Positions 10,987 to 62,892 are shown, counted from the stretch's first letter. The stretch is DNA of 64,000 bases from Muribaculaceae bacterium (GCA_045656705.1 JAZORR010000013.1:19401-83400); one strand, 5' to 3'. The notes: generated by a model from the sequence alone, not told the origin. A program made the numbers and translations.

Positions 10987-10994
10987 TAATTTTG
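10987..10994 (+). promoter_or_regulatory. -7 box (TAATTTTG) for the nonulosonic-acid operon
   Basis: TAATTTTG lies 20 nt upstream of ATG 11014, divergent from the U32 promoter. Confidence 0.45.
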
Positions 10995-11013: not shown

Positions 11014-11991
11014 ATGAAAAAGGTATTGGTTACAGGTGCCGATGGGTTCATCGGATCACATCTTGTGGAACTTCTTCTAAGCGAAGGATATGAAGTGCGT
11101 GCATTGAGCGTTTATAACTCGTTCAACTATTGGGGCTGGCTCGAAGGTATGCATCACCCTAATCTTGAGGTGGTGTGTGGCGATGTGCGCGATCCTAATT
11201 ATTGCCGTGAGATAATGCGTGGATGCGACACTGTGCTACACTTGGCTGCTCTTATTGCTATTCCTTATAGCTACGTGGCTCTTGATAGTTATGTAGACAC
11301 AAATATCAAAGGTACGCTCAATATCTGCCAAGCGGCTCGCGACCTTGGAGTGGAACGCGTGCTGGTGACTTCTACGAGCGAGGTGTATGGCACTGCTCAA
11401 TATGTGCCTATCGACGAAAAGCACCCTCGCCAACCACAATCGCCATACTCGGCTACCAAGATTGGTGCCGATGCCATAGCTATGAGTTTCTACAACGCTT
11501 TCAATCTGCCTGTGGTGATAGCTCGTCCGTTTAATACTTACGGACCTCGCCAATCGGCTCGCGCTATCATCCCTACCATTATCACGCAGATAGCTAATGG
11601 AGCGAGAGAGATAAAGGTGGGCGACCTCACCCCTACTCGCGATTTCAACTATGTAAAAGATACTTGCCGTGGTTTCCTTGCTCTTGCAAAGGCTCCAGGC
11701 ATTGAGGGCGAAGAAATAAATATTGCCACTAATTCAGAAATCTCAATGGAGGATACTCTGAAGACTATTGCTCGCTTGATGGATGCCGATGTGAATTGGG
11801 TGCAAGATCCCGATCGTATTCGTCCGTCGAAGAGTGAGGTGTTCCGTTTGTGGGGCGATAATACTAAAATCACTACGCTCACCGATTGGCGTCCGCAATA
11901 TAGCATAGAACAAGGTCTTGCCGAAACCATTGAGTGGTTTACCAAGAAGGAAAACTTGGCCAAATATAAGGCGAACATCTACAATAAGTGA
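11014..11991 (+). CDS. SDR-family NAD-dependent sugar-nucleotide 4,6-dehydratase (LegB-like)
   Basis: 325 aa. Rossmann motif VTGADGFIGSHL, catalytic SPYSATK (YxxxK), and strings YNSFNYWGWLE and RPFNTYGPRQSARAIIPTIITQI that I recall as typical of LegB-type dehydratases. It is the first gene of the neuB/C/A operon. Confidence 0.65.
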   Translation: MKKVLVTGADGFIGSHLVELLLSEGYEVRALSVYNSFNYWGWLEGMHHPNLEVVCGDVRDPNYCREIMRGCDTVLHLAALIAIPYSYVALDSYVDTNIKGTLNICQAARDLGVERVLVTSTSEVYGTAQYVPIDEKHPRQPQSPYSATKIGADAIAMSFYNAFNLPVVIARPFNTYGPRQSARAIIPTIITQIANGAREIKVGDLTPTRDFNYVKDTCRGFLALAKAPGIEGEEINIATNSEISMEDTLKTIARLMDADVNWVQDPDRIRPSKSEVFRLWGDNTKITTLTDWRPQYSIEQGLAETIEWFTKKENLAKYKANIYNK

Positions 11992-12004
11992 GAAATTAGG
12001 AGTT

Positions 12005-12643
12005 ATGAGTGAGAGGAGATTGATACTTGTGGGTGGTGGTGGTCACTGCAAAGCAGTGATAGATGTGGCTGTGTCGGCAGGTAGAAATGTTTACGGCATA
12101 CTCGACAACAATATAGCCATCGGCACTACAGTTCTTGGCGTGCCTGTGATAGGTGGTGACGACGATATAGCTTCTGTGGCTAATGAAAACACCGAGTTCG
12201 TCATCACTGTAGGACAAATCAAGAGTTCTTCCATTCGTCGCTCAATCGCCGATAGAATAAGACTTGCAGGTGGCAAATTAGCCTCACCTCTCATAGCAAG
12301 CACTGCTCACATAGCCATAGGTGCTGAGATAGGAAAAGGCTCTGTGGTGATGCACAATGCTGTAATAAACTCTGATGCTAAAATAGGCGAAAACTGCATA
12401 ATCAACACAGGTGGCATTGTGGAACACGACTGCACGGTGGGCGATTTCGTGCATATCTCTACTGGAGCTATCGTAAACGGAATGAGCCATATAGGCAACG
12501 ATTGCTTCGTGGGTAGTCACGCCACTGTGGCAAATGTGGTGAAGGTGGCACAGGGTTGCATAATAGGCACTGGTGCTGTGGTGATAAAAGATATTGCAGA
12601 ATTAGGCACATACTGCGGTGTTCCCGCCAAAAAAATGAAATAA
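12005..12643 (+). CDS. NeuD/PglD-family hexapeptide-repeat sugar acetyltransferase
   Basis: The ORF-track entry starts at 11918 but overlaps the preceding gene. The in-frame ATG at 12005 gives MSERRLILVGGGGHCKAVIDVA (NeuD/PglD-type N-domain) followed by left-handed beta-helix hexapeptide repeats (IGENCIINTGGIVEHDCTVGDFVHISTGAIVNG). Confidence 0.75.
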   Translation: MSERRLILVGGGGHCKAVIDVAVSAGRNVYGILDNNIAIGTTVLGVPVIGGDDDIASVANENTEFVITVGQIKSSSIRRSIADRIRLAGGKLASPLIASTAHIAIGAEIGKGSVVMHNAVINSDAKIGENCIINTGGIVEHDCTVGDFVHISTGAIVNGMSHIGNDCFVGSHATVANVVKVAQGCIIGTGAVVIKDIAELGTYCGVPAKKMK

Positions 12644-12647
12644 AGTT

Positions 12648-13193
12648 GTGGAAAAGAAATTTTTTAGATTAGTTACTAATGCTTATGATAATGTAGGTGG
12701 TTTATTGTATGCTCCCAAAGGAGTTTATAGATTAGCAGTTGACGGAGAACCTGTGAAAAATTGGGAAAATATAATCATGAAATTAAAGGATGGGTTATAT
12801 ACTGATTTTAGTTCTTGCGTAGGTGGTGCCAATCTCGTTAGTATTGAGTTTAAGGAAGTTGTTGAGAAATTTATACCAAATGATTATCCTCTTGAATTTC
12901 TTCCTGTAAAAGCAGAAAGTGAAAAATATGGTAATCGCACATATTACATAATGCATTTTAAGAAAATATTTGATGTAATTGACAAGAAACATACTGTATA
13001 TGTTGATGGAACCGATTGTGTAATAAAAGTGTGCTTAGATTATCAAAAATGTAAAGATTTACACATATTTAATACACAACCGGCAATAAACGATGTTATT
13101 GTGTCGGGAGAATTACGTCGAATGTTACGAAAATATAAACTTGATTTAGGCTTTATTTTTCATGAGTTACCATATTATGATTATGGAAAATAA
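12648..13193 (+). CDS. Hypothetical protein, tentatively Imm11/DUF1629-like polymorphic-toxin immunity protein
   Basis: 181 aa with a GTG start 4 nt after the upstream stop. The pattern ...LVSIEFKEVVEKFIPNDYPLEFLPVKA...YYIMHFKKIFDVIDKKHT...LHIFNTQ...DVIVSGELRRMLRKYKLDLGFIFHEL matches my recollection of the DUF1629 layout. No search was run. Confidence 0.45.
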   Translation: MEKKFFRLVTNAYDNVGGLLYAPKGVYRLAVDGEPVKNWENIIMKLKDGLYTDFSSCVGGANLVSIEFKEVVEKFIPNDYPLEFLPVKAESEKYGNRTYYIMHFKKIFDVIDKKHTVYVDGTDCVIKVCLDYQKCKDLHIFNTQPAINDVIVSGELRRMLRKYKLDLGFIFHELPYYDYGK

Positions 13194-13208
13194 CGATATT
13201 TTAAAATT

Positions 13209-13997
13209 ATGGCAAAACGAGTGATTATAAATAAGGGTGATATATTCTGTGTTGAAATAGAGGGAAAATACAAAAGTTATTTCCAATTTTTAGATAAAGA
13301 TGTCAATTTATTGAATAGTAACGTTATAAGAGTTTTTAAAACACGTTATCCATTAGATTATGAGCCTATTCTTGCTGAAATAGTACAAGATGATGTGCTT
13401 TTTTATACGCATACATTTATAAGGGTTGGATTAGATTATAACGCTTGGTATAAGATAGGTAGATTAAAACAGGAAGAACCTTATAATCTTACAAATGTAA
13501 AATTTGGAACTTTTTGTGAAACGAGATTAAAGCGAGATAATGGCATTTTAGAATTTATAACTGTCAGTCCTTTAGAGAATTGGACTACGTGGTATGTTAA
13601 CGGAGAATATGAATGTGATGTTGATTTAATGACTGAAGATATAGAGATATTGGAACTTGGTGGAGTTATGCCATATTCACATGTTCTGTATAGAATCGAA
13701 TATGGTTATTATCGTTCTTGGTCTAAAGAATATGACATTATCAAGCGACGTCCGATAGCGGGGGTGAATAGCTACACGAAGCGCGAAATTGACGGAAACG
13801 AGTGCTATTTTCATTTTATCGGTGAGGATATTTATTGCGAGATTATTGTAACGCCACAGGGTGTAATCAAGCTTACTCAGGAAGAGCCCGAAAAGGACGG
13901 TTGCACATTCCACGCCCGCAAGTTCTGGGAAATCAACTGGAAATACCGAGACCACATCACCGCAGAGGGCTTTGAAGAGATGTGGAATAAAAACTAA
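13209..13997 (+). CDS. Hypothetical protein, paralogue 1; N-terminal Imm26-like immunity domain (tentative) plus conserved C-terminal module
   Basis: 262 aa. N-terminus MAKRVIINKGDIFCVEIEGKYKSYFQF...VIRVF...WYKIG...ENWTTWYVNG...MPYSHVLYRIEYGYY follows the GD(I/V)F-x-V...Y..Q...W..iG...W layout I associate with Imm26-type proteins. It is a full-length paralogue of 15033..15821. Confidence 0.45.
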   Translation: MAKRVIINKGDIFCVEIEGKYKSYFQFLDKDVNLLNSNVIRVFKTRYPLDYEPILAEIVQDDVLFYTHTFIRVGLDYNAWYKIGRLKQEEPYNLTNVKFGTFCETRLKRDNGILEFITVSPLENWTTWYVNGEYECDVDLMTEDIEILELGGVMPYSHVLYRIEYGYYRSWSKEYDIIKRRPIAGVNSYTKREIDGNECYFHFIGEDIYCEIIVTPQGVIKLTQEEPEKDGCTFHARKFWEINWKYRDHITAEGFEEMWNKN

Positions 13998-14032
13998 AAA
14001 CTATCATTTATTTCTAAATTTTGTAAAATAAT

Positions 14033-14473
14033 ATGGAAGCGTATTTTGAAGATGATATGGAAGAAAAACTAATGGTGAAATTGTTAACTGACGTTTTCAA
14101 AAAATTACCGCCAGATTCGTATCTATGTGTAGATATTTTATTTGATTTCGTTTTTAAAGATGGTTTTCTTCCTAAACTGAATCAAGTAAAGGAAGAGATG
14201 ATAGGTCATCAAGGATTTTGTTGTTTTAAATTTAAGTTAACTCCTGATTGTGTTGACTATCTTATAGAATCGTTGGAAGAGGATAACTTATTAGTAAATT
14301 ATTTGTGCCATTATATGGTAATAAATGGGACTGAGGTGTTGCTAGACGCTTATGATCAAACGTTGATAACGGTTAGAGAAGATTTTAATATCTCACAAGA
14401 TTTTATCCAAGAATGTAGTAAATATGAAATCTACATATCTACAGAAGATAAAATCACTTCTACCTTTAATTAA
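14033..14473 (+). CDS. Hypothetical protein (146 aa), acidic, no recognisable motif
   Basis: ATG-initiated ORF on the same strand with AT-rich composition like its neighbours. No signal peptide. Confidence 0.4.
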   Translation: MEAYFEDDMEEKLMVKLLTDVFKKLPPDSYLCVDILFDFVFKDGFLPKLNQVKEEMIGHQGFCCFKFKLTPDCVDYLIESLEEDNLLVNYLCHYMVINGTEVLLDAYDQTLITVREDFNISQDFIQECSKYEIYISTEDKITSTFN

Positions 14474-14582
14474 TTTGTGTTTGACAATATCTGAATCAAG
14501 GCAATGTTGTATCACTATATACCTATTATACCGGGATTTTTTGAGAAGTTAAAAGGAAATTATTAATCTAAATATATTTAAT

Positions 14583-14987
14583 ATGAAAATTATAACTATA
14601 ATTTTAGCGTCATTGCTTTTGATATTCAGATATTGTACAATGGAACCGGAAGAATATTAATTTGTTACAATAAAAAATAATTCAAATATTCCTTTAGTAT
14701 GTATATTGGAGAATGAAGAACCATTAGAGGGCTTTAAATTTGTTGATAGAGAGTCAGAAACTGCACTAGGAGAATATGATGTCGGAAAAATGTTTCTAGC
14801 CCAGACAAGACAAGATGTTTTCAAAAAAAAGGATAATGTTGTTTTCTGGTTCTTCCCGATGGATGTCTTTATGAAACTAGAAGCTGGGGATAGTCTCATT
14901 AATTATCCTGAAGAGATTGTTTTAAAGATAGTTAAATGTAACAAGAGGGAGCTTGAGACATTGAATTGGACAATTACTTATCCATAA
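14583..14987 (+). pseudogene. Possible small secreted/lipoprotein gene interrupted by one in-frame TAA
   Basis: ATG 14583 encodes MKIITIILASLLLIFRYCTMEPEEY, then TAA at 14658-14660. The same frame continues open (FVTIKNNSNIPLVCILENEEPLEGFKF...) into the track ORF 14706..14987, which itself has only a TTG start. Confidence 0.3.
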
Positions 14988-15032
14988 GTGAATGGTATAA
15001 AAAAACATTGATGTACTTATTTAAATATTATT

Positions 15033-15821
15033 ATGGCAAAGAGAATAGTAACAAAGGTTGGAGATGTGTTTTGTGTAGAAATAGACAACGAGTATAAATG
15101 TTTTTTTCAATATATTGAGAAAGATTTAAGTCAACTAAATAGTTCCGTAATAAGAGTATTTAAACGACGTTACCCTATTGAATACAATCCTATAATTGAA
15201 GAAATAGTGAGTGATGATATTTTGTTCTATGCACATACTGTTCTAAGAGCTGGTATTGATTATAAAGCATGGTATAAAGTAGGTAAATCCAAAGAATTGG
15301 GATTAGATGGTTTAAGTAAAGTATTATGGGGGGTAGTACATATTCATAAATTATACATTATAGATCATGTACCCCAAATAGACAAGGCTAATCCATTAGA
15401 AAATTGGACTATTTGGTACTCTAATTATAAAACGATTGATATAGGAATTTTACCTAAAAAATATTATGAAATTATAGAAGAAGGAGCCGTAATACCTTAT
15501 TCTAGCATTGTAAAGAGGTTAAAATATGGCTATTATTTAAGTTATGACCCTATGTATGATATTATTAAGCGCCGCCCGATAGCGGGGGTGAATAGCTACA
15601 CGAAGCATGAGATTGATGGGAAAGTGTGCTATTTTCATTTTATCGGCGAGGATATATACCGCGAAATTATTGTAACACCACAGGATGTAATCAAACTCAC
15701 TCAGGAATACCCACAGAAAGAAGGTTACTCATTTCATGCTCGCAAGTTTTGGGAAATAAATTGGAATTACAAAGATCACATCACCGAAGATGATTTCCTA
15801 TCAATATGGAATAAAGCATAA
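15033..15821 (+). CDS. Hypothetical protein, paralogue 2 of 13209..13997 (Imm26-like N-terminal domain, tentative)
   Basis: 262 aa, the same length as paralogue 1. MAKRIVTKVGDVFCVEIDNEYKCFFQY... The last ~90 aa are nearly identical to paralogue 1 (DIIKRRPIAGVNSYTK.EIDG..CYFHFIGEDIY.EIIVTPQ.VIKLTQE...HARKFWEINW.Y.DHIT). Confidence 0.45.
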   Translation: MAKRIVTKVGDVFCVEIDNEYKCFFQYIEKDLSQLNSSVIRVFKRRYPIEYNPIIEEIVSDDILFYAHTVLRAGIDYKAWYKVGKSKELGLDGLSKVLWGVVHIHKLYIIDHVPQIDKANPLENWTIWYSNYKTIDIGILPKKYYEIIEEGAVIPYSSIVKRLKYGYYLSYDPMYDIIKRRPIAGVNSYTKHEIDGKVCYFHFIGEDIYREIIVTPQDVIKLTQEYPQKEGYSFHARKFWEINWNYKDHITEDDFLSIWNKA

Positions 15822-15840
15822 ATATTTTCAATTATTTTCT

Positions 15841-15848
15841 TAAATTTG
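15841..15848 (+). promoter_or_regulatory. -7 box-like TAAATTTG at the right edge of the insertion, just upstream of neuB
   Basis: TAAATTTG at 15841-15848. The neuB ATGs are at 15852 and 15858, so the spacing is very short and function is uncertain. Confidence 0.25.
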
Positions 15849-15851
15849 CAC

Positions 15852-16859
15852 ATGAATATGAATAAGACTATAATTATAGCTGAAGCGGGGGTGAATCATA
15901 ATGGCGATATGGGTATCGCTAAAGGTCTCATAGATGCTGCTGCCGATGCTGGGGTTGATTATGTGAAATTCCAGACTTTCAAGACCGAAAATTTGGTGTC
16001 GCACGATGCTCCTACTGCCGAATATCAGAAATCGGCAACTAATGAGTCGTCGCAATTTGCTATGCTCAAGCGTTTGGAGCTAAGCGAGGAACAGCATCTC
16101 ACTCTTATCGATTACTGCAATGAGAAGGGTGTAAAATTCCTTTCTACGGCATTCGACCTCGATAGTATCGATCTATTGAGCCGATTTGACCTTGATTTCT
16201 GGAAAGTGCCAAGTGGCGAAATCACCAACTACCCTTATTTGGCGAAAACAGCTCGCACAGGTAAGCCCGTGGTGATGTCGACGGGTATGTGCGACGAAAA
16301 TGACATACATAATGCCATTTATGCTTTATGCGAAAATGGTGCAAACAAAGATGACATTACCTTATTGCATTGCAACACGCAATACCCTACTCCAATGGCC
16401 GATGTGAATCTGCGAGCAATGGCGAGAATGGAGACCTCATTCGGCGTGCAAGTGGGCTATAGCGACCACACTCAGGGCATTGAAGTGCCGATAGCGGCTG
16501 TGGCTCTCGGGGCGAAGGTGATAGAGAAGCATTTCACGCTCGACCGTAATATGGAAGGCCCCGACCACAAGGCTTCGCTCGAACCTCACGAACTCAAGGC
16601 TATGGTTTCGGCTATTCGCCACATAGAGGAGGCTCTCGGGAATGGCGAAAAGCGTACATCGGCGAGCGAAACACCCAATAAGGCTGTGGCTCGCAAGAGT
16701 ATAGTGGCCAAATGCCACATTGAGGCTGGCGAACTGCTCTCCGAAGAGAATATCACAGTGAAACGCCCCGGAACGGGCATCTCACCAATGCGTTGGCGTG
16801 AGGTGTTAGGTACAAAAGCCATACACGACTTCACACCCGACCAACTGATAGAAATATAA
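15852..16859 (+). CDS. neuB: N-acylneuraminate (nonulosonate) synthase, NeuB/LegI family
   Basis: IIIAEAGVNHNGDMGIAKGLIDAAADAGVDYVKFQTF, and a C-terminal SAF-like region IVAKCHIEAGELLSEENITVKRPGTGISP. The track start 15846 is TTG. The first ATG is 15852, and 15858 is also possible. Confidence 0.85.
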   Translation: MNMNKTIIIAEAGVNHNGDMGIAKGLIDAAADAGVDYVKFQTFKTENLVSHDAPTAEYQKSATNESSQFAMLKRLELSEEQHLTLIDYCNEKGVKFLSTAFDLDSIDLLSRFDLDFWKVPSGEITNYPYLAKTARTGKPVVMSTGMCDENDIHNAIYALCENGANKDDITLLHCNTQYPTPMADVNLRAMARMETSFGVQVGYSDHTQGIEVPIAAVALGAKVIEKHFTLDRNMEGPDHKASLEPHELKAMVSAIRHIEEALGNGEKRTSASETPNKAVARKSIVAKCHIEAGELLSEENITVKRPGTGISPMRWREVLGTKAIHDFTPDQLIEI

Positions 16860-18031
16860 TGAACACGATGAAGCGAAAAATATGCATAGTGACGAGTACG
16901 CGTGCCGATTGGGGACTGCTGAGCGGTGTGGCTCAAGCTCTTAACAATCGTGCCGATGTGACTCTGCAAATCATTGCCACGAATATGCACCTCGATGAGC
17001 GATTTGGCAATACCTGGCAAGAGATTAAACGCGACGGATTGCACATAGATTATCGTGTGCCAATGTCTACCGATACCGACAGCCCTGACGGAACTGTGAA
17101 TGCTATGGGCGAATGTATGCAAGGCATGAGCAAGGCATTTGAGGCTCTACGCCCTGATTTGCTGCTAATTCTTGGCGACAGATATGAGATGCTTGCAGTG
17201 GCCGCTACAGCGCTTATTCATCGCATTCCTGTGGCTCATATGCATGGTGGAGAGGTGACGCAAGGTGCGTTCGACGAAAGCATTCGCCATTCTATCACCA
17301 AGATGAGTCACTTGCATTTCACTTCTACCGAAGAGGCTCGAAATCGTGTGATCCAACTCGGAGAGAACCCTGCCCATGTGTTCAATACTGGTGCTATTGG
17401 TGTGTACAACATATTGAATGCCAATCTTATGACTCGTGCCGAACTTGAAGACAACCTTGGCACAGAGATTCCTGAGAAATCGATTTTCGTAACCTTCCAC
17501 CCTTCTACTCTCGACGAAATGTCGCCTGCCGAACAATGCGAAAACCTACTGAAGGCTCTCGACGAGGTGAAGGATTACAAGATATTTTTCTCTTACCCTA
17601 ATAACGATCCTTCGGGACAGGCCATCATAGAGCTTATAGAGGCGTTTGTGGCACGAAACAGCGAGCGTTGCGTGGTATTCCCTTCGCTTGGCGCACGACG
17701 CTATCTTTCGGTGCTAAAATGCGTGTCTGCCGTAGTGGGTAACTCGTCGAGTGGCATTCTTGAGGTGCCATCGATGCACATCCCTACTCTGAACATAGGT
17801 ATCCGTCAGCAAGGTCGCCAACGAGCTAAGTCGGTGATAGACTGTGGAGTAAGCACCGAAGAAATAAGAGAAGGTCTCGCACATGTGTTGTCGCACGAAG
17901 TGAGAGAGATGGCTAAAACGGTGAGCAACCCTTACGAACAGCCCGATACGCTCGCCAAGATAGTGGAAACTGTGGCCACTTTCCCTCTCAACAACATAAT
18001 TCAAAAACCATTTCACGATATCACTCTATGA
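16859..18031 (+). CDS. neuC: UDP-N-acetylglucosamine 2-epimerase (hydrolysing), NeuC/LegG family
   Basis: 390 aa. KICIVTSTRADWGLL and GDRYEMLAVAATALIHRIPVAHMHGGE. The start overlaps the neuB stop (TAATG). Confidence 0.85.
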   Translation: MNTMKRKICIVTSTRADWGLLSGVAQALNNRADVTLQIIATNMHLDERFGNTWQEIKRDGLHIDYRVPMSTDTDSPDGTVNAMGECMQGMSKAFEALRPDLLLILGDRYEMLAVAATALIHRIPVAHMHGGEVTQGAFDESIRHSITKMSHLHFTSTEEARNRVIQLGENPAHVFNTGAIGVYNILNANLMTRAELEDNLGTEIPEKSIFVTFHPSTLDEMSPAEQCENLLKALDEVKDYKIFFSYPNNDPSGQAIIELIEAFVARNSERCVVFPSLGARRYLSVLKCVSAVVGNSSSGILEVPSMHIPTLNIGIRQQGRQRAKSVIDCGVSTEEIREGLAHVLSHEVREMAKTVSNPYEQPDTLAKIVETVATFPLNNIIQKPFHDITL

Positions 18032-18714
18032 AGACTCTATACATTATCCCTGCACGAGGTGGCAGCAAAGGAATTCCTGGTAAAAACATCAAATCTCTTG
18101 CAGGTAAACCACTTATCGGTTACTCTATAGATGTGGCTCGAGCTCTTGCCGACGACTGCGACATCTGCGTTAGCACCGACGATGCTAATATCATTGCTAC
18201 TGTGGAGGCTATGGGGCTGAAAGTGCCTTTCATACGCCCTGCCCACCTTGCTACCGACCAAAGTGGCACTTATGAGGTGCTTTTGCACGCTCTCGACTAC
18301 TACGAAGCTCAAGGCATTCACTATGAGTGTATGGTGCTTTTGCAACCTACTTCGCCTTTCCGCACTGCCGACGATGTGTGCCACTGCCTGAAACATTATA
18401 CACAAGATATTGATATGGTGGTGAGCGTGAAGCGTGCTTCAGCCAACCCTTACTACAATGCTTTCGAAACCGACGAAGATGGCTTCCTTCATATCTCTAA
18501 AGGCGAAGGCAACTACACTCGCCGCCAAGATGCTCCACCAGTGTGGGAATATAATGGTGCTGTGTATGTGATCAACACCTACTCCCTTCGCAAAATGCCA
18601 CTACACAAATTTCCGCGCCGCAAAATGTGCGAAATGAGCGACGAACATTCCATCGACCTCGACACACCTACCGATTGGCTCATCGCCGAAATGCTGTTGA
18701 CAGCGAAGAAGTGA
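18028..18714 (+). CDS. neuA: CMP-N-acylneuraminate cytidylyltransferase, NeuA/LegF family
   Basis: 228 aa. IIPARGGSKGIPGKNIK, LLQPTSPFR. ATGA overlap with the neuC stop. Confidence 0.85.
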   Translation: MKTLYIIPARGGSKGIPGKNIKSLAGKPLIGYSIDVARALADDCDICVSTDDANIIATVEAMGLKVPFIRPAHLATDQSGTYEVLLHALDYYEAQGIHYECMVLLQPTSPFRTADDVCHCLKHYTQDIDMVVSVKRASANPYYNAFETDEDGFLHISKGEGNYTRRQDAPPVWEYNGAVYVINTYSLRKMPLHKFPRRKMCEMSDEHSIDLDTPTDWLIAEMLLTAKK

Positions 18715-18918: not shown

Positions 18919-19344
18919 TTATAGTTTATATCCACATTCTTCAAGTATTCGCAAAAACTCATCCTTTGAAGATTCTTTTTCGTGATGCTCTTTCTGCCCT
19001 ATAATATAATTCTTGATGTGATCAACTTCATAATAAGAAACTGTAAGTGATGCATACCCATTTGCCCATCCTCTGAACTTTGGAAAAGATGGATGACCAG
19101 AAAAGAAAGAACTTGTGCGTCCCTTTATAAGATGCATTACCTTATCGGGTAAAACTGTTCCAGGCAACTCTATTAAAATGTGAATATGGTCGAGATGTGA
19201 ATTAATTCTAATCAATTTCCATCCTTGACGCTTACAAATACCCAAAATATAACCAAACATTTCTCCTTTTGTTTCTTCGGGTATAGTCATCTCACTATTT
19301 TTAGTTCGGGTAATGATGTGAAATATATGTCGATGAAAACTCAT
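18919..19344 (-). CDS. IS200-like Y1 (HUH) transposase / REP-associated tyrosine transposase (RAYT)
   Basis: The track ORF extends to 19437, but that extension runs through the REP hairpins. The ATG at 19344 gives 141 aa: MSFHRHIFHIITRTKN..., HUH motif HLDHIHILIE, C-terminal GYASLTVSYYEVDHIKNYIIGQKEHH (Tyr plus YI..Q..HH). Confidence 0.7.
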   Translation of the reverse strand: MSFHRHIFHIITRTKNSEMTIPEETKGEMFGYILGICKRQGWKLIRINSHLDHIHILIELPGTVLPDKVMHLIKGRTSSFFSGHPSFPKFRGWANGYASLTVSYYEVDHIKNYIIGQKEHHEKESSKDEFLRILEECGYKL

Positions 19345-19387
19345 AACAATTTTTCTGTAAAGATAGCATATAGAAAGTAATAATACA

Positions 19388-19457
19388 AACGGCGTACCTG
19401 AACGGCACGCTTCATTTATGATGCATTTTCCGGGCACTAAAGTACCCGGTTACCTTA
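19388..19457. repeat. Inverted copies of REP hairpins B and A upstream of the RAYT gene
   Basis: The rc of 19430-19457 is TAAGGTAACCGGGTACTTTAGTGCCCGG. The rc of ~19391-19410 is GCGTGCCGTTCAGGTACGCC. Stems differ from the left copies by paired (compensatory) substitutions. Confidence 0.7.
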
Positions 19458-56639: not shown

Positions 56640-57764
56640 ATGCAAAAGAGCACTTTCTCAGTAAACTTCTTCATTCGCCGCACTCGACTTGGCAAGAGTG
56701 GCGAAACACCTATTATGATGCGTATCTCCGTAGATGGCAGATACACCGAACTCAGCACACAGCGACGAGTGCCTGTTGAGCAGTGGAGTCAGAGTCGCTG
56801 TTGCGCCACGGGCAAGACCGCTGTGGCGTTGGAGATAAATCGCCACCTCGACAATTTGCGAAGCAAGGCGAGCGAGGCACATCAGAATTTCCTTGCCGAA
56901 GATGGCTATGTAGATCCATTTATTATTAAGGAGTTCCTGCTGGGCAAGCACCGCCGTCAGCGATTCTTCTTTGAGGTCTTCGAGGAGCACAACGCACGCA
57001 TTGCTTCGCTGATCGGCAAAGATTACGACCGCACGACCTATCACCGCTATATGTTGTGTCTGCGTTACTTTCGTGAGATGATGACCAAACAGACAAAGGC
57101 GGAAGATTTTCCAATCAGAAATCTCAGCCACGAGATGGTGCGAGATTTTGAGCATTTCCTCAAAACCAAAAAGCGAGTGGCACAGAACACGATGATTCGC
57201 TATATGAAGTGTTTGAAGAAGGTCGTAAACCTCTCACTTGCCAATGGTTGGATGACCGTCAATCCTTTTGCCGGCATAAAGTATGCCGAGAAGAAGGTCA
57301 TACGAGAGTATCTGACTATGCCCGAGGTAAACCGCTTACGAGAAAAAGAATTTTCGATTCAGCGACTTGAAATGGTGCGAGATATATTCTTGTTCTGCTG
57401 TTACACGGGGTTGGCGTATATCGATGTTCACAACCTCCGCCCCGAGAATATCACCGAGGATGCCCACGGGCGCAAGTGGATACGCAAGCAGCGAGAAAAG
57501 ACCGATGTGGAGTTCTATGTGCCCCTGCTCGAATATCCGTTGCAGATACTCGAAAAGTACAATAATCACCCACTGTGCAAGGAACGAGGCACACTACTGC
57601 CCGTCTATGCCAACCAGAAGATGAACTCCTATCTAAAAGAGATTGCCGACTTCTGCGGGATAAAGAAACAACTGACGATGCATTGCTTAAGACATAGTCA
57701 TTTGTCTTTGTTGCTGAAAACAAATGATTTACAGAATTTAAATTTGCTACAGGTAACGATTTAG
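56640..57764 (+). pseudogene. Bacteroidetes-type tyrosine recombinase/integrase, 3'-truncated (catalytic Tyr region missing)
   Basis: 374 aa. N-terminal arm-binding-type MQKSTFSVNFFIRRTRLGKSGETPIMMRISVDGR, SAM-like core, box II HCLRHS at 57681-57698. After this the frame runs 22 AT-rich codons (HLSLLLKTNDLQNLNLLQVTI) to a stop, without the LGH...Y segment. Confidence 0.65.
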
Positions 57765-57898
57765 AAACGAGCGAAGTTTCCTTATCTGTCTTATTCTGCA
57801 TTATTGAAAAGAACGCTTTATCTTAATGCAAAGATAGTATTAATTTTGTAAACATTAAAATAACAATCTATATTTTATCTTTACGAATAAGCCATTCT

Positions 57899-58978
57899 TT
57901 ACCATTCACAGGAAACTACAAGCTCAGGTTTTAATAGTTTAAGTTCTTCAAATATCTCTTTAGCTGTTAATCCTGCGTAAAATGGGACTACCTGTGGAAT
58001 CATATTGATTTGGTCACAAAGAGATTGAATTTGCTCTTCTACGGACTTCCCCTTATCAACTATAACAGTATTAGTAGTTGTTTTCCTTTCAAGATGCTCA
58101 GTTACCATTCCTACAAAATAACCTTTATCCGAAAATATTGGACCACCACTATTTCCTGGTCGTACAACGGAAGAGTATATTAAACATTTATCACCATTAT
58201 AGTTTGTTGAAATAGCATTAATTTCACCTTTTTGTACGATTAGAGGAGTTTCCCTAATTCTGGAAATAGGCGGATATCCAAAAGTGAGAATTGTGTCCAA
58301 GACATGTCCGCCACTAAATACTACATCATTTTCAGGATTTAAAGAGCAGTCCAAAATTTCAATAATAGCAATATCCTTTGATCCCGATTTATATATATCT
58401 TTAACAGCGTATTGCGCCTCTTTAATCAACACCTCCTTAATTTCCACTCCATCAACAACATGCAAGCATGTTAATATATGATTTGTTGATATGAGCAGAC
58501 CGCTACCAATATGGTTATCTCCTTTATCATCACAAACAACTATAATGGCGGTATAAGGAGAAATCCTTTCTCTGATATAATCAAGGCCTAAATATTCTGC
58601 ATAAGATGTAATTTTTAGCCATTCCTCCTCTGATGAAGGCATATTAAGAGATACGTACATATCACCTAATATTGGTAAGCCACCTAAAGACGAGACTTTA
58701 TTTACAACTGACTTTTCAACTAACTTTTGTAACAAGTGGTTTATATGATACAAATAAGTAAATGCACTTTTACCTAAGCTATTTTTCTTTGTATTATAAT
58801 CTATAAAATCTTGTACAGAAAGTCCTATTGTATTAGCCTTCTCATCAGATAAGTTATGGAGTTCCTTTTTAATTTGGGCAGCATTTATCAAGGAGAAATC
58901 CTCTATAATCCGTCTTATGAGTAATTCTAATTCTATAAACGTGATGGGAGCATCCGTTGCAGTTTCAAGTTCTGCCAT
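57899..58978 (-). CDS. Trypsin-like (S1/Trypsin_2-type) serine protease with ~140-aa helical N-terminal domain; third gene of the nuclease-ATPase-protease operon
   Basis: Catalytic triad context: HILTCLHVV (His), SKDIAIIEI (Asp), VRPGNSGGPIF (Ser). No signal peptide. The track start 58990 is TTG (8-nt overlap with the upstream gene). The first ATG, 58978, lies 4 nt after the upstream stop. Confidence 0.75.
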   Translation of the reverse strand: MAELETATDAPITFIELELLIRRIIEDFSLINAAQIKKELHNLSDEKANTIGLSVQDFIDYNTKKNSLGKSAFTYLYHINHLLQKLVEKSVVNKVSSLGGLPILGDMYVSLNMPSSEEEWLKITSYAEYLGLDYIRERISPYTAIIVVCDDKGDNHIGSGLLISTNHILTCLHVVDGVEIKEVLIKEAQYAVKDIYKSGSKDIAIIEILDCSLNPENDVVFSGGHVLDTILTFGYPPISRIRETPLIVQKGEINAISTNYNGDKCLIYSSVVRPGNSGGPIFSDKGYFVGMVTEHLERKTTTNTVIVDKGKSVEEQIQSLCDQINMIPQVVPFYAGLTAKEIFEELKLLKPELVVSCEW

Positions 58979-58982
58979 AACA

Positions 58983-60428
58983 TTATTCAATTAATCTATC
59001 TACAATACTTATTTTATTAACATCTGTCAAACTATATTCATATATTGATGCAATGATAATTTGGTTATTTGCAAAATCTCTTTTTAATATTTCAACCATT
59101 GCTTCTATATTTTGCTTATCAATCTCTTTCCCACTTGGAGAATCAAGAATTATCGGGAATTTAATGTTCAAATGCTTTTCAACCTCTAACAAGCAAGCAA
59201 GCCTAAAAGCAAAAACCGTTTTATGCAAAATGGCTCCTGACAATTCTTTTAGATTTGAGGTAAATAAATACTTTTCGGTATTATGACTTTCATCAATTCC
59301 TAATTCTTGAAGATATTTTTTAGTGGTATTAAATATCGAAGAGATTACAGTATTAGCACTTCGTGTTAATTCTCTAATTTTTAGATTAATGTCCGCTATT
59401 TCTTTTTCTAATTTCGCAATTCCTTTTTTGACAGCAACTTCATTTATAGGTATACTTGAAATTCTTTTATCAAAAATCTCGGAAATCGTTTCAACATTGT
59501 CAAAGAAGGACAACTGTTGCTCTTCTGTTTTACGCTCTTTCTCAAGCTCAGCAATTTCTGACTGTATTTGATTATATTGTGAAGCTATCAGTTTGCGTTT
59601 TGCTACGAGAAAATCAATAGTGTCATTAAGACCTATAATATTATCCTCTGTAACGGCAAAGATTTCTTTATTAGGAGCTTGAACTAATAGTCCTATTTCT
59701 GCTATGAAATTTCTAAAATGTTTATTTTCCTTTAGGACCTTGTCTATTCTGCATAATTCTTTCTTTAACATATTATGCTGTATCTTACATTGATTGATTT
59801 TGCTATCAATCAAAGAATTGTATGATTCTCCTGCAAGATTGTTAGATTCGGCATCAATAGTTTCTTGGTACTTAGAAACACTAAACATCTGTTTGTATTT
59901 CAATAAATCTTGTCTCTTCGCTTCCTTTTGTCTGTATAATTCAGAACAATCAATCTCTGCGATTCCCCTGATTAGTTCCTCAATATTAAAACGAATACTT
60001 CCAATGACAATCCCTCGATTAAGTAAGGTCCAACCCTTCTCCTGATCAAAATAGAATATTCCTAAAAGATTATTTATCAGTTCAGGGTAGTTGGCTTTAA
60101 AAATAATTTTATGAAGAGCTGCTTCATCGCTTGGCAAGACATAAGTCGTTACAGAATCATTCTGTTTCAATTCAATATAATCCCTCGATTCTCGGCATAA
60201 TAATAGAATCTCTCCATTATCAAGAGTTATTTTACTTTCGACCTTGCAGTTCTCAAATTTGATATGCTTAGTATTGGGAACGCTATATCCGATTGAATAT
60301 AACATAAGTCTTAGTAAAGTAGTTTTGCCCTTACTGTTTGCAAGACTATGTATAAGGTTGTTTCCATCAGAGAAAACAATCAAGCGTTTATTACCAGCCT
60401 CTTCGATATAGATTGAATTGAAAATCAT
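58983..60428 (-). CDS. Coiled-coil ABC/SMC-like ATPase (Rad50/LmuB/ABC-3C-like), middle gene of the operon
   Basis: 481 aa. Walker A-like SLANSKGKTTLL, Q-loop-like IFYFDQEKG, ~250-aa heptad-rich insert, signature-like KELSGAILHK, Walker B FPIILDSPSGKEID. ATGA overlap with the upstream gene. Confidence 0.65.
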   Translation of the reverse strand: MIFNSIYIEEAGNKRLIVFSDGNNLIHSLANSKGKTTLLRLMLYSIGYSVPNTKHIKFENCKVESKITLDNGEILLLCRESRDYIELKQNDSVTTYVLPSDEAALHKIIFKANYPELINNLLGIFYFDQEKGWTLLNRGIVIGSIRFNIEELIRGIAEIDCSELYRQKEAKRQDLLKYKQMFSVSKYQETIDAESNNLAGESYNSLIDSKINQCKIQHNMLKKELCRIDKVLKENKHFRNFIAEIGLLVQAPNKEIFAVTEDNIIGLNDTIDFLVAKRKLIASQYNQIQSEIAELEKERKTEEQQLSFFDNVETISEIFDKRISSIPINEVAVKKGIAKLEKEIADINLKIRELTRSANTVISSIFNTTKKYLQELGIDESHNTEKYLFTSNLKELSGAILHKTVFAFRLACLLEVEKHLNIKFPIILDSPSGKEIDKQNIEAMVEILKRDFANNQIIIASIYEYSLTDVNKISIVDRLIE

Positions 60429-61423
60429 AGGTTCACAGCATTCTTAATATTGTCTATTTGAATACGTTTGTTCAAAATATTGCGAACAATAATTTGTAGA
60501 AGTTTTTCTTGTAAAGTACTAGGCAAAAACACTCTCTCTCCTTCAAAAATATATGCGAATTTACAACTCTCTGTTTCTATAAATTTTCGTTTTCTTTCAC
60601 CTTGTTTTGCTTCTTTATAGAAACTATTATATGCACATAGCACCTTAGTTACAAATTCGTATTTTTCCGAGCAGGTATTTATAATTGTTTCGTAACTTCT
60701 CGATAGTTCATATATCTCAGAGTCATCAAAGTCATCTTCATCATAATTTTCATTTTGAGTTACAAGAACTATTAAAGGCCATATAATATCCTTTTTAGTT
60801 AGTTTTATGTCAGATGTCCTTTTCGTTCCACTTCTAAAAATATCTTTTATCCAAATTCCATGTAAATTGTCTTTAGCTATAGATATATTTCCTAATTTGG
60901 GAATGAAATCACCAATAGCATTCATTACACATTTATATCTTTCATTGTCGTTTTCTGTTTCAAAAGGTAAAATCTGTATTTTGAACTTACTCGTGTCAAG
61001 AGGATCTTCAATCTCAGAAATAATCTTATTAATTTTATCTTTTAAAGGTTCTGGCAATGAACTGTAATCTCTTTGAGCAACACCATAGAATATCGGATTC
61101 AATTGTTTCTCTTTGAATGGGTTTGGAGTATTTGTTATATATATAAGTTCTTTAACTTTTCCAGATTTATGCTCTGCTTCTGACAATGATGTTATAGACT
61201 TCTTAAGATTCGATAGTACATTAGAAAAATCTGTACTGCTATTTACAACAGCTTTTGCTTGTGCCAATAAACAACTTCCATCATTTAGATTGATTTCTAT
61301 ATCTTCAGCTCCTTCTAAACGAATACTGGTCATATCTTTAATATTCTCAAGCATCAACACTATTGCTGCGTTTGCTTGAAAATCAAATCCAAATAACACT
61401 GATGTTGCCGTTCTATTCGCCAT
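60425..61423 (-). CDS. DUF4297/Cap4-like PD-(D/E)xK nuclease-domain protein with uncharacterised C-terminal domain; first gene of the operon
   Basis: 332 aa. The N-terminus SVLFGFDFQANAAIVLML...RLEGAEDIEINLNDGSCLLAQAKAV matches the G-F-x-(F/Y)-Q ... E-x-x-E-D ... Q-x-K layout I recall for DUF4297. The rest (~240 aa) is helical-looking and unassigned. Confidence 0.55.
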   Translation of the reverse strand: MANRTATSVLFGFDFQANAAIVLMLENIKDMTSIRLEGAEDIEINLNDGSCLLAQAKAVVNSSTDFSNVLSNLKKSITSLSEAEHKSGKVKELIYITNTPNPFKEKQLNPIFYGVAQRDYSSLPEPLKDKINKIISEIEDPLDTSKFKIQILPFETENDNERYKCVMNAIGDFIPKLGNISIAKDNLHGIWIKDIFRSGTKRTSDIKLTKKDIIWPLIVLVTQNENYDEDDFDDSEIYELSRSYETIINTCSEKYEFVTKVLCAYNSFYKEAKQGERKRKFIETESCKFAYIFEGERVFLPSTLQEKLLQIIVRNILNKRIQIDNIKNAVNL

Positions 61424-61452
61424 TATAATACCCTATTTTACGAATTCTTTTG

Positions 61453-61460
61453 CAAAATTA
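61453..61460 (-). promoter_or_regulatory. -7 box (TAATTTTG on the minus strand) for the three-gene operon
   Basis: Plus-strand caaaatta, 30 nt upstream of ATG 61423. Confidence 0.5.
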
Positions 61461-61502
61461 GTGATTATTTGTCAACTACTTCGCTACCAAGTAATAAAAT
61501 TG

Positions 61503-61510
61503 TAATTTTG
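61503..61510 (+). promoter_or_regulatory. -7 box TAATTTTG for the divergent ATPase gene
   Basis: Lies 27 nt upstream of ATG 61537. Confidence 0.5.
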
Positions 61511-61536
61511 TATCGTTTAATCAATGTTTGAAGGTT

Positions 61537-62892
61537 ATGAAGATAAGAAAGGTTAAATGGGCAAATCACCCGATATTAGGCAACTTAGAATTAAATTTTG
61601 TAAATCCAGTTACTAATAAGCCATATTCTACTATTGTTTTAGCTGGCGAGAATGGTACGGGAAAGACTACTATATTGGAAACACTGAATACTTTCTTGAG
61701 TATTGGAAGTTTTGAGCCTTTTGATGGAATTGAGTATGAAGTTGAAGATAAACGATACATTTTGACTCCATCAAACATACCTGGTTCGCTTAAAACATTT
61801 TTCACAAGATATGATGTGGAAAATGATACTTCAGAAAACATTCATAGTGACCGGAATAATAATTCAAGTTCTATTCAATCAGATAATAAAGACCCTAGAT
61901 CTTATGGAAGTGTGTTTTCAAGACCAAGGGCAGATTATAAAACCAACAAAATAGAATCTGTAAAAACAAATGAACTTGATAATAACAAGTATGACTCGGA
62001 TAATGATGATAATTTCACATCATTAAAGCAACTAATTGTAGATGTTCAGAACCAAGATAATGAGCAATATCGCGATATAAATGATAATAGGAGTCAGCAA
62101 GGCCTATCACCAATGTCAACTGCCGATTTTGAACCAATATCAAAAATCTATAGATTTAAAAGTGCTTTTAATGGATTTTTTGAAACCATTAAATACAAGA
62201 AGGTCGGTAATGCTTCAGGGGAAAAGGTCGTGATTTTTGAAAAGCATGGCATAGAAATTCCTATAGATGTTTTAAGTACCGGGGAAAAACAAGTCGTTTT
62301 TAGAGGGGCATATTTGCTTAGAAACATCAATGTTCTTCAAAACTCGACAATAATGATTGATGAGCCTGAATTAAGCATGCATCCACTATGGCAGAAAAAG
62401 ATATTACAATATTACAAGAATTTATTCACTGATGCCAATTCTAATCAAACAGCACAACTGTTTTTTGCAAGCCATTCAGAAGCGGTCATAAGCGAAGCTC
62501 TAAAAGATTTAGATAAAACAAAGGTAATAGTATTGAAAAGAGATGGCAATGGACAAGTTTCAGCTAATTGTATAGGTATTCCTGCCGTACTTCCATATAC
62601 TATGGCTGCCGAGGTAAATTATCAAGCTTTTGAATTAGTATCAACAGATTACCATAATGCTTTATATGGTTATATTGAAGCTGAGGGTTGGAAGAATAAT
62701 TTTGATGCTCAATATCCCACAGTGAGCTATAATAGAGAAAGAAATGGCACTGTAATAACACAACGGATTACACTAACTGAAAAAATACGCCATATAATTC
62801 ATCACCCGGAGAATCGTAATAATAGTTACACAGAGGGAGATTTAAAAGAATCTATAGAACGAATGAGAAGTTTCATCATGGCACAACCATAA
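61537..62892 (+). CDS. Stand-alone ABC-type (AAA_15/AAA_21-like) ATPase with Asn/Asp-rich insert and ~110-aa C-terminal extension
   Basis: Walker A LAGENGTGKTTILE, signature LSTGEKQV, Walker B TIMIDEPELSMHP, H-loop FFASHSE. The track start 61528 is TTG. ATG 61537 gives MKIRKVKWANHPILGNLELNF. Confidence 0.7.
   Translation: MKIRKVKWANHPILGNLELNFVNPVTNKPYSTIVLAGENGTGKTTILETLNTFLSIGSFEPFDGIEYEVEDKRYILTPSNIPGSLKTFFTRYDVENDTSENIHSDRNNNSSSIQSDNKDPRSYGSVFSRPRADYKTNKIESVKTNELDNNKYDSDNDDNFTSLKQLIVDVQNQDNEQYRDINDNRSQQGLSPMSTADFEPISKIYRFKSAFNGFFETIKYKKVGNASGEKVVIFEKHGIEIPIDVLSTGEKQVVFRGAYLLRNINVLQNSTIMIDEPELSMHPLWQKKILQYYKNLFTDANSNQTAQLFFASHSEAVISEALKDLDKTKVIVLKRDGNGQVSANCIGIPAVLPYTMAAEVNYQAFELVSTDYHNALYGYIEAEGWKNNFDAQYPTVSYNRERNGTVITQRITLTEKIRHIIHHPENRNNSYTEGDLKESIERMRSFIMAQP

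Follow-up and report, generated by a model that had tools for sequence, protein, structure and literature searches.

A probable toxin-less polyimmunity array of Rhs-type cassettes within a nonulosonic-acid operon of a Muribaculaceae bacterium

We analysed a 64-kb stretch of DNA from a Muribaculaceae bacterium (the window), in which a 3.2-kb AT-rich island (12644-15851) separates neuD from neuB in a nonulosonic-acid operon (Table 1). The island is most probably a toxin-less polyimmunity array, consisting of orphan immunity genes, one pseudogene, and the relic of a toxin gene, that belongs to an Rhs (YD-shell) cassette pool of Muribaculaceae-like Bacteroidales. The word orphan applies to the 64 kb of genome that is visible, because an Rhs toxin encoded elsewhere would make some of these genes non-orphan. 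Related loci are given L numbers.

Table 1. Coordinates of the island features and of the flanking operon genes in the window
Feature	Position	Strand	Details
legB-like NAD-dependent sugar 4,6-dehydratase	11014-11991	+	TIGR04180 494 bits, cutoff 475; first gene of nonulosonic-acid cluster
neuD/PglB-family sugar acetyltransferase	12005-12643	+	TIGR03570 196 bits, cutoff 160.8
ORF A, predicted Imm11-family immunity protein	12648-13193	+	181 aa, GTG start; Pfam Imm11
ORF B, Imm26-like paralog 1	13209-13997	+	262 aa; variable N-terminal, conserved C-terminal part
Direct repeat copy 1 (B 3' end + spacer)	13731-14013	+	283 nt; 31-mer at 13752-13782
B-C spacer, toxin-gene relic	13998-14032	+	35 nt; reads N Y H L F L N F V K *
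ORF C, immunity candidate, small unnamed family	14033-14473	+	146 aa; homologs directly after Rhs toxins
ORF D, small-lipoprotein pseudogene	14583-14987	+	signal peptide MKIITIILASLLLIFRYC; in-frame TAA 14658-14660
ORF E, Imm26-like paralog 2	15033-15821	+	262 aa; Pfam Imm26
Direct repeat copy 2 (E 3' end + spacer)	15555-15837	+	283 nt; 31-mer at 15576-15606
E-neuB spacer	15822-15851	+	TAAATTTG (Bacteroidetes -7-box consensus) at 15841-15848
neuB	15852-16859	+	TIGR03569 502 bits; intact
neuC	16859-18031	+	TIGR03568 460 bits; intact
neuA-like cytidylyltransferase	18028-18714	+	CTP_transf_3; intact

The island holds four intact ORFs (A, B, C, and E) and one pseudogene (D). A sequence-only reading of this DNA had described five small ORFs on the operon strand with gaps of 4, 15, 35, 109, 45, and 30 nt; this layout is exact, but the count of intact ORFs falls to four because D is a pseudogene. 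The abrupt shift in composition described at both edges was confirmed, with a GC content of 31% in the island (0.312) and 47-49% in the flanks (0.470 in legB-neuD and 0.487 in neuBCA), so that the island is 16 points lower than the operon; the mean across the window is 0.413 (sd 0.033, 3.2-kb windows). Only one other stretch of the window, an unrelated defence island near 59 kb, is as rich in AT. The left edge of the island is the end of the neuD stop codon, and ORF A starts 4 nt beyond it. The same joint (TAA AGTT + start codon) follows neuD in the window, L083, L099, and L084.

No conjugation or transposition genes were found within the island. The statement that no recombinase or transposase accompanies the ORFs is correct in that none is adjacent, but it needs qualification for the surroundings, where an IS200-like Y1 transposase gene lies 205 nt past neuA (18919-19437, - strand) and the only integrase of the window, a tyrosine integrase that belongs to another island, lies 41 kb away (56640-57764). 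There is also a separate phage-defence island at 56.6-64 kb. Its presence, and the fact that the ORFs are AT-rich, horizontally acquired small genes, would fit an anti-phage defence or toxin-antitoxin module. This is very unlikely given that none of the five ORFs had a PADLOC match at E < 0.01, that no toxin partner occurs inside the island, and that family and context evidence favours polymorphic-toxin immunity.

Across legB to neuA there is no terminator-like hairpin on the + strand, the first one being at 18894, and a -7-like box (TAATTTTG) is located ahead of legB at 10987-10994. The short gaps and the lack of hairpins suggest co-transcription with the operon; the island genes would be transcribed with legB-neuA or from AT-rich internal promoters. 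The TAAATTTG motif of the E-neuB spacer shows no overall enrichment, occurring 70 times in the window against 61 expected, so its function as a promoter is only a possibility.

Interruption of the usual neu gene order, as the sequence-only reading proposed, is clear from comparison with other loci. Among 80 neuB loci taken from the genomes of GTDB species, 61 have neuD ending within 120 nt of neuB, and homologs of any island ORF occur in none of the 80. In the close relatives L086, L087, and L100 the neuD-neuB distance is 4-10 nt and the junction is empty, which provides the empty site that had been sought. The island flanks are syntenic with the empty-site loci L086 and L100 (FlgD_ig protein, Exo_endo_phos, Peptidase_U32, legB, neuD, neuB, neuC, neuA), and the amino acid identity of legB is 96-97% in L084, L086, and L100. 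These data bear on the idea that the ORFs are an integral part of the nonulosonic-acid pathway, with accessory roles such as sugar modification, transport, or regulation; the only indications of this are operon position, shared strand, and short gaps. Besides being missing from all 80 loci and from the three empty-site relatives, the ORFs give way to an Rhs toxin locus in L084, have homologs at unrelated sites beside toxins, differ from the operon in GC content, and contain no Pfam or NCBIfam enzyme domains or enzyme-like folds. A pathway role is effectively refuted and we regard it as scarcely credible. The ORFs are thus not conserved operon members, and they do show similarity to immunity families, as detailed below.

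ORF A scored 24.0 bits against Pfam Imm11 (PF07791 / DUF1629; cutoff 22.1), and Imm11 matches were obtained in 39 of its 41 homologs (best E 1.6e-14); for both Imm11 and Imm26, the proteins encoded in the window clear the cutoffs by only 1-2 bits. In L095, an 83% homolog of A begins 19 nt after an AHH-tipped Rhs toxin (Pfam AHH). Gene order in L095/L096 is a Por_Secre_tail gene, the AHH-tip Rhs toxin, the A homolog, an Imm26-like gene, a 73% homolog of C, and Macro, and the order of the immunity genes is that of the window. The L002 Rhs locus has a 96% homolog of A in a frameshifted copy. Genes for Imm11 neighbour Tox-AHH, Tox-HNH, or Tox-SHH toxins (PMC3482391), and Imm11 is a documented partner of Tox-AHH (PMC3482391; PMC12077181). 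ORF A is a true Imm11 family member, in agreement with the earlier guess of an Imm11/DUF1629-like product. Its family and context suggest that it would bind and block the AHH (HNH/EndoVII) type of nuclease toxin tip.

ORFs B and E share 57% amino acid identity. ORF E scored 24.1 bits against Pfam Imm26 (PF15428; cutoff 23.3), over residues 8-86 only, and Imm26 matches occur in 18 of the 63 family members (best E 3.8e-7). The suggestion that this pair is Imm26-like draws support from the E match; B had no Pfam match of its own in the profile search and is connected to the family by its identity to E. Together they look like a diverged Imm26 branch with an extra C-terminal part of ~170 aa. ORF E has 357 homologs, mainly in Muribaculaceae, which some sources name "immunity 26/phosphotriesterase HocA family". 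Its AF2 model has a pLDDT of 94, and the sole structural match is local and myosin-VI-CBD-like. Imm26 is associated with Tox-URI1 nuclease toxins (PMC3482391). None of the toxins in the loci examined had a URI tip. In relatives, Imm26-like homologs are directly downstream of Rhs/YD-shell toxins, and B and E may block other tips, perhaps URI-type nucleases.

ORF C belongs to a family of only 10 proteins and had no Pfam match and no PDB structural match (AF2 pLDDT 87). A 73-74% homolog starts 2 nt after the toxin gene in L084/L085, and a 32% homolog directly follows the toxin in L002, the tip of which is visibly similar to the L084 tip across the last ~100 aa. The B-C spacer matches the 3' end of the L084 toxin CDS (...KNYHLFLNFIE*) at about 88% (30/34 positions, counted by eye), and this match is contiguous with the block of C homology (window 13983-14459 vs L084 12729-13205). 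The L002 toxin ends in NYHLFLNKK*. The spacer is evidently what remains of the final ~11 codons of an Rhs toxin gene. From its position, C is a candidate immunity gene for the "NYHLF"-type Rhs toxin tip, and family and context suggest that it would block this unnamed tip. Homologs of A, C, and the Imm26-like ORFs are all found directly downstream of Rhs/YD-shell toxins in relatives, and this context supports the immunity reading independently of the profile matches.

The reading frame of ORF D from ATG 14583 is broken by a TAA codon. ORF D aligns over its full length to an intact 131-aa gene in L084 that has GAA (Glu) at the position of the stop, so D is a lipoprotein pseudogene that arose by nonsense mutation. 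No structural match was obtained for it. Homologs of D are also found in the arrays of L001 and L091, and this presence, with its position, is consistent with D having been an immunity gene.

To place the island in context, we compared what occupies the neuD-neuB junction in relatives. A sister lineage (L084/L085) has a full Rhs locus there, comprising a small T9SS-CTD protein (Por_Secre_tail), a 2052-aa SpvB/FG-GAP/RHS toxin, and immunity genes, and L098 has the start of such a locus. Other immunity-only sets occupy the junction in L083, L099, and L097; in L099, where neuD is 100% identical to that of the window, A is followed by a different gene. The junction is, on these comparisons, a recurrent insertion site lying exactly between the neuD stop and the neuB start. 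With the L084 and L002 toxins as tblastn queries, no match to an Rhs toxin was found in the 64-kb window. The earlier claim that no toxin is present accordingly stands for the window, but not for the same junction in the sister lineage.

The locus L083, which has 96-98% DNA identity to the window, contains A and a single B/E chimera and is 1824 bp shorter. The direct repeats formed by the 3' ends of B and E are 80% identical, are spaced 1824 nt apart, and share an identical 31-mer that has no third occurrence in the window. The sequence of L083 matches B exactly as far as this 31-mer and matches E exactly beyond it, so that the crossover was within the repeat. Because L083 is an exact B/E chimera, cassette gain or loss can be attributed to homologous recombination between the 283-nt repeats, for which a recombinase is not needed. 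More generally, the comparisons show that cassettes have been added, lost, and exchanged by homologous recombination through Imm26-like 3' parts and toxin-tail spacers, with no dedicated recombinase, and that they pass between lineages.

Such transfer raises a possible alternative, which we hold to be the less likely one though worth taking seriously, that no toxin ever stood at this site in this lineage and that recombination brought in a block of immunity genes alone from a different Rhs locus or polyimmunity array, with no deletion of a resident Por_Secre_tail and rhs pair. The A-B-relic-C joint is also found downstream of a toxin at another site in L002, beside HU and rhomboid genes, where window 12642-14076 is collinear with L002 9434-10845 at 80% DNA identity. 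Toxin-less C-Imm26 arrays occur at the HU site in L088/L089, and cassettes can be far closer between lineages than their flanks, as with the D'-E segment, for which the window and L097 show 96.5% identity compared with 76% for the adjacent legB-neuD flank. Against import, the window and the toxin-bearing L084 have the same left spacer, and in both an Imm26 3' end (a relic in L084) and a homologous toxin-tail-like spacer lie directly upstream of neuB. These shared features suggest that a single insertion took place in an ancestor and was remodelled afterwards.

Selection was estimated from dN/dS, which ranged from 0.02 to 0.29 across the intact ORFs (A, 0.02-0.07, with 0.02 for the near-identical pair window/L099; B, 0.29 vs L002; C, 0.14-0.21, with 0.14 for window/L088; E, 0.12-0.21) and was similar, at 0.11-0.13, for neuD and neuB, all of these being rough values because dS above 1 is saturated. 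The values point to functional proteins. Part of the array is nonetheless decaying, as indicated by the D pseudogene and by frameshifted copies in relatives (A in L002; Imm26 and Macro in L095). These same observations, the toxin relic left as a spacer, and the loss of 1.8 kb of array in L083 could mean that the whole island is a functionless remnant, kept because deletions into neuD or neuB are harmful. We think this unlikely, since four ORFs are intact, start codons and short spacers are kept, and purifying selection is seen in the families, including A in window/L099 and C in window/L088.

If the island is a polyimmunity array, the cell would survive the Rhs toxins of related strains without the cost of its own toxin. 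A bolder proposal is that the placement has a function and did not come about by accident. The neuD-neuB junction might then serve as a dedicated docking site that needs no recombinase and lets Rhs cassettes ride operon transcription, the toxins of this clade, each of which comes with a small T9SS C-terminal-domain protein bearing a YD-like motif, might represent undescribed T9SS-linked Rhs delivery with display or targeting tied to the sialic-acid-like glycan, and the window might carry the "defence-only" allele of a maintained polymorphism. This is speculative and, in our estimate, improbable.

We found the interbacterial weapons of Muribaculaceae-like gut bacteria to be essentially undescribed. 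A single junction with empty, armed (toxin + immunity), and disarmed (immunity-only) alleles offers a natural series for the trade between attack and defence, and the L083 recombinant catches cassette turnover without a recombinase in the act. Toxin-immunity pairs that can be tested are the AHH tip with ORF A and the unnamed "NYHLF" tip with ORF C. When glycan operons are annotated, small AT-rich ORFs within them should not be presumed to be sugar-modifying genes.

The sequence-only reading was aware of no described array that rides inside a glycan operon without a recombinase. The case for novelty is weaker than it supposed: polyimmunity loci that have no recombinase beside them have been described, as have remnants of Rhs loci that lack a toxin (PMC3482391), although the insertion site is unusual and recurrent. 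Imm11 and Imm26 are both listed in polyimmunity loci (Zhang et al. 2012, PMC3482391). Like those loci, the island strings together immunity genes from unrelated families, which share one orientation, lie close to each other, and are not separated by an intact toxin gene; its gene content also varies among close strains (L083 and L099 vs the window). Unlike them, it is small (four intact genes), sits inside a biosynthetic operon, and carries a toxin relic, and a sister lineage has a full Rhs toxin locus as the alternative allele at this junction. Compared with an Rhs polymorphic-toxin locus, the window lacks the large RHS/YD-repeat protein with a variable tip that is present at this junction in L084/L085, and it lacks an immunity gene right after a toxin tip, an arrangement that L084 and L095 do have.

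The island also resembles rAID-1 and AID-1/2 (Ross et al. 2019, bioRxiv 10.1101/471110), which are co-directional orphan immunity arrays of Bacteroidales with a repeated spacer element. For rAID-1, at least two co-directional downstream genes and a GC content of at most 41% are specified; the island has five ORFs and 31%. It differs from rAID-1 in having no 5' XerD-like recombinase, the upstream gene being neuD, and from AID-1 and AID-2 in not being on an ICE or transposon. In addition, its immunities relate to Rhs toxins rather than T6SS effectors, and its cassettes turn over through homologous recombination between repeats that lie within genes.

Displaced or orphan toxin-tip/immunity modules occur in Rhs loci of Enterobacteria, and Vibrio T6SS clusters contain orphan immunity genes after effector loss. 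Orphan immunities to an Rhs NADase in Serratia (PMC10539506) and an Rhs module with a poly-immunity cluster in Stenotrophomonas (bioRxiv 10.64898/2026.07.13.738213) are reportedly similar. These systems and the island have in common that immunity genes pile up after rhs, that tips swapped by recombination leave fragments, and that immunity outlives the toxin. The island differs in that the main rhs gene is missing, in its location inside a nonulosonic-acid operon, and in that the toxins of its relatives are SpvB/FG-GAP/RHS proteins with a T9SS-CTD protein and not PAAR/VgrG-linked T6SS effectors. Finally, AHH-Imm11 toxin-immunity pairs are known from the T6SS and SitA5 systems of Myxococcus xanthus (PMC12077181). 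As in those pairs, the family of ORF A directly follows an AHH-tipped toxin in L095; by contrast, the Imm11 gene in the window stands without its AHH toxin.

The five ORFs between neuD and neuB are separated from each other and from their flanks by 4, 15, 35, 109, 45 and 30 nt (12644-15851, + strand), exactly as in the sequence-only reading. The abrupt shift in composition that it described at both edges is also seen, with a GC content of 0.312 in the island compared to 0.470 in legB-neuD and 0.487 in neuB-neuC-neuA. Across the whole window, GC in windows of the island's size has a mean of 0.413 (sd 0.033). All five ORFs are located where they had been placed, but D is not intact. Its frame, read from the ATG at 14583, is broken by an in-frame TAA (14658-14660), and the matching codon is GAA (Glu) in the intact 131-aa homolog of a related locus, L084. 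D is therefore a small-lipoprotein pseudogene resulting from a nonsense mutation. D-type lipoproteins are recurrent in such arrays (L001, L084 and L091 among the loci of relatives).

Features of the window, with rough Nei-Gojobori dN/dS values, many of which have saturated dS
Feature	Position	Strand	dN/dS	Remarks
Subtilase, 766 aa	2480-4780	-		Por_Secre_tail
FlgD_ig protein, 1059 aa	5011-8190	-		large, secreted
LegB-type 4,6-dehydratase				left flank; TIGR04180, above cutoff
neuD	12005-12643		0.11	left flank, adjoining island; NeuD/PglB-family acetyltransferase
ORF A	12648-13193	+	0.02-0.07
ORF B	13209-13997	+	0.29
ORF C	14033-14473	+	0.14-0.21
ORF D	14583-14987	+		pseudogene
ORF E	15033-15821	+	0.12-0.21
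neuB	15852-16859		0.13	right flank, first
NeuC				right flank, second
NeuA-like cytidylyltransferase				right flank, third
IS200-like Y1 transposase	18919-19437	-		Pfam Y1_Tnp, 67 bits; 205 nt after neuA
Subtilase, 2615 aa	41965-49812	-		Ig-like repeats, Por_Secre_tail
Tyrosine integrase	56640-57764			phage-defence island
Trypsin_2 protease	57899-58990	-		phage-defence island
PDC-M46B (LmuB-like)	58983-60428	-		phage-defence island; 634 bits
PDC-M46A (LmuA-like)	60425-61423	-		phage-defence island; 420 bits
PtuA/AriA-like ATPase	61528-62892			phage-defence island
Type III restriction endonuclease fragment	62936-63961	-		phage-defence island

The suggestion that ORF A is Imm11/DUF1629-like was borne out by a Pfam Imm11 match just above the gathering score. 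In an exhaustive representative search, 39 of 41 ORF A homologs matched Imm11, down to an E-value of 1.6e-14. An 83% identical homolog of ORF A in L095/L096 begins 19 nt after an Rhs toxin with a Pfam AHH nuclease tip, and AHH-Imm11 is a documented toxin-immunity pairing (PMC3482391; PMC12077181). The Imm26-like assignment proposed for B and E applies directly to E, where the match is just above threshold and covers residues 8-86 only; B is a paralog that is 57% identical to E. Imm26 matches were found in 18 of the 63 members of this family, and some E homologs in Muribaculaceae are named 'immunity 26/phosphotriesterase HocA family'. Identity between B and E is only 46% over the N-terminal ~174 aa and rises to 78% (83% in DNA) over the C-terminal ~88 aa, where GC content is also higher. 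This split could reflect either a conserved C-terminal scaffold combined with N-terminal specificity or gene conversion homogenising the 3' ends.

The family of ORF C is tiny, with 10 proteins, and C has no Pfam, PDB-sequence or fold match. A C homolog directly follows the toxin of L084/L085, and another (32% identity) directly follows the toxin of L002. The C-terminal tips of the L084 and L002 toxins are visibly alike and both end in NYHLFLN; a Pfam search of this 'NYHLF' tip returned no family. Because C homologs directly follow two toxins with similar tips, C is likely the cognate immunity protein for this tip. Structure prediction, also proposed earlier, gave confident AF2 models of E and C, and Foldseek returned no significant global match for either. 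The model of E (pLDDT 94) resembles the myosin VI cargo-binding domain, but only locally; this fold is listed among immunity folds by Zhang et al. (PMC3482391). This match fits an immunity-type fold but does not prove it. When A, C, E and the tip of the L084 toxin were used as PDB sequence queries, only chance-level matches were returned, and neither NCBIfam nor PADLOC had a credible match for any of A-E. Profile searches found no enzyme domain in A-E, which argues against the alternative that these ORFs are sugar-modifying enzymes.

We compared the neuD-neuB junction with that of relatives. In a NeuB scan of GTDB species genomes, the end of neuD was no more than 120 nt from neuB in 61 of 80 neuB loci and homologs of the island ORFs were found in none of the 80; since these relatives are all at or below 68% identity, the scan served to establish gene order and not a close empty site. 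Exact-sequence look-ups of the window NeuD and ORF E gave no match and were replaced by homolog searches. The closer comparators were metagenome-assembly loci found via NeuD homologs. These supplied the empty-site comparison called for in the sequence-only reading: in L086, L087 and L100, neuD and neuB are 4-10 nt apart, NeuD is 67-70% and LegB 97% identical to that of the window, and upstream synteny is shared. In L084 and L085 (NeuD 80% identical), the junction holds an Rhs toxin locus. A Por_Secre_tail protein (134 aa) precedes the SpvB/FG-GAP/RHS toxin (2052 aa), which is followed by the C homolog (146 aa, 73-74%); the locus also encodes a Macro-domain protein and an intact version of D, and what is left of an Imm26-like 3' end (~35 nt) lies directly before neuB. 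The beginning of a similar Rhs locus is at the junction in a third lineage (L098). Different immunity-only sets occupy it in L083 (96-98% identical to the window in DNA), L099 (NeuD 100% identical) and L097. The junction is thus a recurrent site, with empty, armed (toxin-bearing) and disarmed (immunity-only) alleles. The island itself is an insertion.

The spacer between B and C (35 nt, 13998-14032) translates as N-Y-H-L-F-L-N-F-V-K-stop, is ~88% identical (manual count) to the codons that close the L084 toxin gene, and is contiguous with the block of C homology in L084. An 'NYHLF'-type toxin tip therefore once preceded ORF C. The same joint is found in L002, L088 and L090. A direct repeat of 283 nt is also common to B and E (13731-14013 and 15555-15837); its copies are 80% identical, are spaced 1824 nt apart and both contain an identical 31-mer (13752-13782 and 15576-15606). 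The single Imm26-like gene of L083 is identical to B up to this 31-mer and to E from the 31-mer into neuB. One homologous recombination event therefore separates L083 from the window, with the loss or gain of 1824 bp comprising the 3' end of B, C, D and the 5' end of E. Such recombination explains cassette turnover without a recombinase. Between the window and L097, identity reaches 96.5% in the D'-E DNA compared with only 76% in the adjoining legB-neuD flank, so cassettes also travel between lineages. In the window and the relatives compared, the left edge of the island is always the neuD stop codon; selection against deletions into neuD could account for this. No convincing terminal inverted repeats or target-site duplications came out of a repeat search at the two ends of the island, and on this basis we rejected an origin as a transposon or integron-like element.

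The earlier statement that no recombinase or transposase is present holds for the island but not for the window, which contains a Y1 transposase and an integrase, neither of them visibly linked to the island. The Y1 transposase gene is at the same place in L083 and absent from the empty-site locus L086. A second Y1_Tnp gene is near the immunity array of L001. The tyrosine integrase was rejected as a partner of the island because it is 41 kb away and heads a separate, AT-rich phage-defence island (56640-63961). The absence of a toxin was upheld by tblastn with both Rhs toxins (L084 and L002), which found no match in the 64-kb window. The window's large proteins are T9SS-secreted subtilases and others of a similar kind. 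Because both subtilases carry a T9SS sorting domain, the organism has T9SS cargo, in keeping with Bacteroidota.

In the relatives, every SpvB/FG-GAP/RHS toxin seen is preceded by a ~135-aa protein (L002:2522-9021, L084:6208-12777, L095:1989-8622, L098:10644-11045) that combines a signal peptide with a YD-repeat-like motif (e.g. YSYDACGNRINREI) and a C-terminal T9SS sorting domain (Por_Secre_tail). This protein may serve Rhs toxins as an adaptor linked to the T9SS. The literature searched held no description of it and nothing on Muribaculaceae polymorphic toxins or T9SS-linked Rhs toxins. A second polymorphic site lies downstream of rhomboid-rhomboid-HU genes (L088:9576-10911, L089 vs L002:2155-10780). 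The L002 version comprises an Rhs toxin together with a Por_Secre_tail gene and immunity genes. In L088 and L089 the site holds nothing but C (98% to window C) and an Imm26-like gene, with an Imm26 3' relic ahead of the pair.

The low dN/dS values show purifying selection on the A, B, C and E families, although they are rough, with many dS saturated. No terminator-like hairpins were found on the + strand from legB to neuA, and co-transcription of the island with the nonulosonic-acid operon is plausible. A TAAATTTG box is located 4 nt upstream of the neuB ATG. With 70 occurrences against 61 expected, the window shows no enrichment of the Bacteroidetes -7 box (TAnnTTTG), and we therefore make no claim that the copy before neuB is a promoter. 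A sigma-70 scan is uninformative for Bacteroidota. The nonulosonic-acid cluster (11014-12643 and 15852-18714) has no LegC/DegT-type aminotransferase gene between the LegB-type dehydratase and the NeuD/PglB acetyltransferase, an arrangement also seen in L084, L086, L100 and L019; distant relatives such as L005 have a ~1.1-kb gap at this position. Either the aminotransferase for a legionaminic-acid-like pathway has to come from a gene elsewhere, or the product is a different sugar. Functional coupling of the Rhs/T9SS-CTD toxin cassettes to the glycan operon, an idea based on their co-location, seems improbable.

Together, these results support the reading of the island as an orphan immunity array in a glycan operon and refine it with Imm11, Imm26 and kinship to Rhs loci. 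Orphan immunity genes that persist after toxin loss have enterobacterial and Vibrio examples, and part of the literature already describes the phenomenon in other bacteria. The position of the array inside a nonulosonic-acid operon is unusual and recurrent, and the locus clearly displays a recombination mechanism by which cassettes turn over. As a comparison, the array has the descriptive features of heterogeneous polyimmunity loci (PMC3482391). It differs from rAID-1, which is defined by a recombinase, and from AID-1/2, which are on a mobile element (bioRxiv 10.1101/471110). Because it has no rhs gene it is not an Rhs locus, yet it is allelic and homologous to the Rhs loci of sister lineages. 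The array is thus best described as a putative orphan polyimmunity array of a known type, related to Rhs loci.
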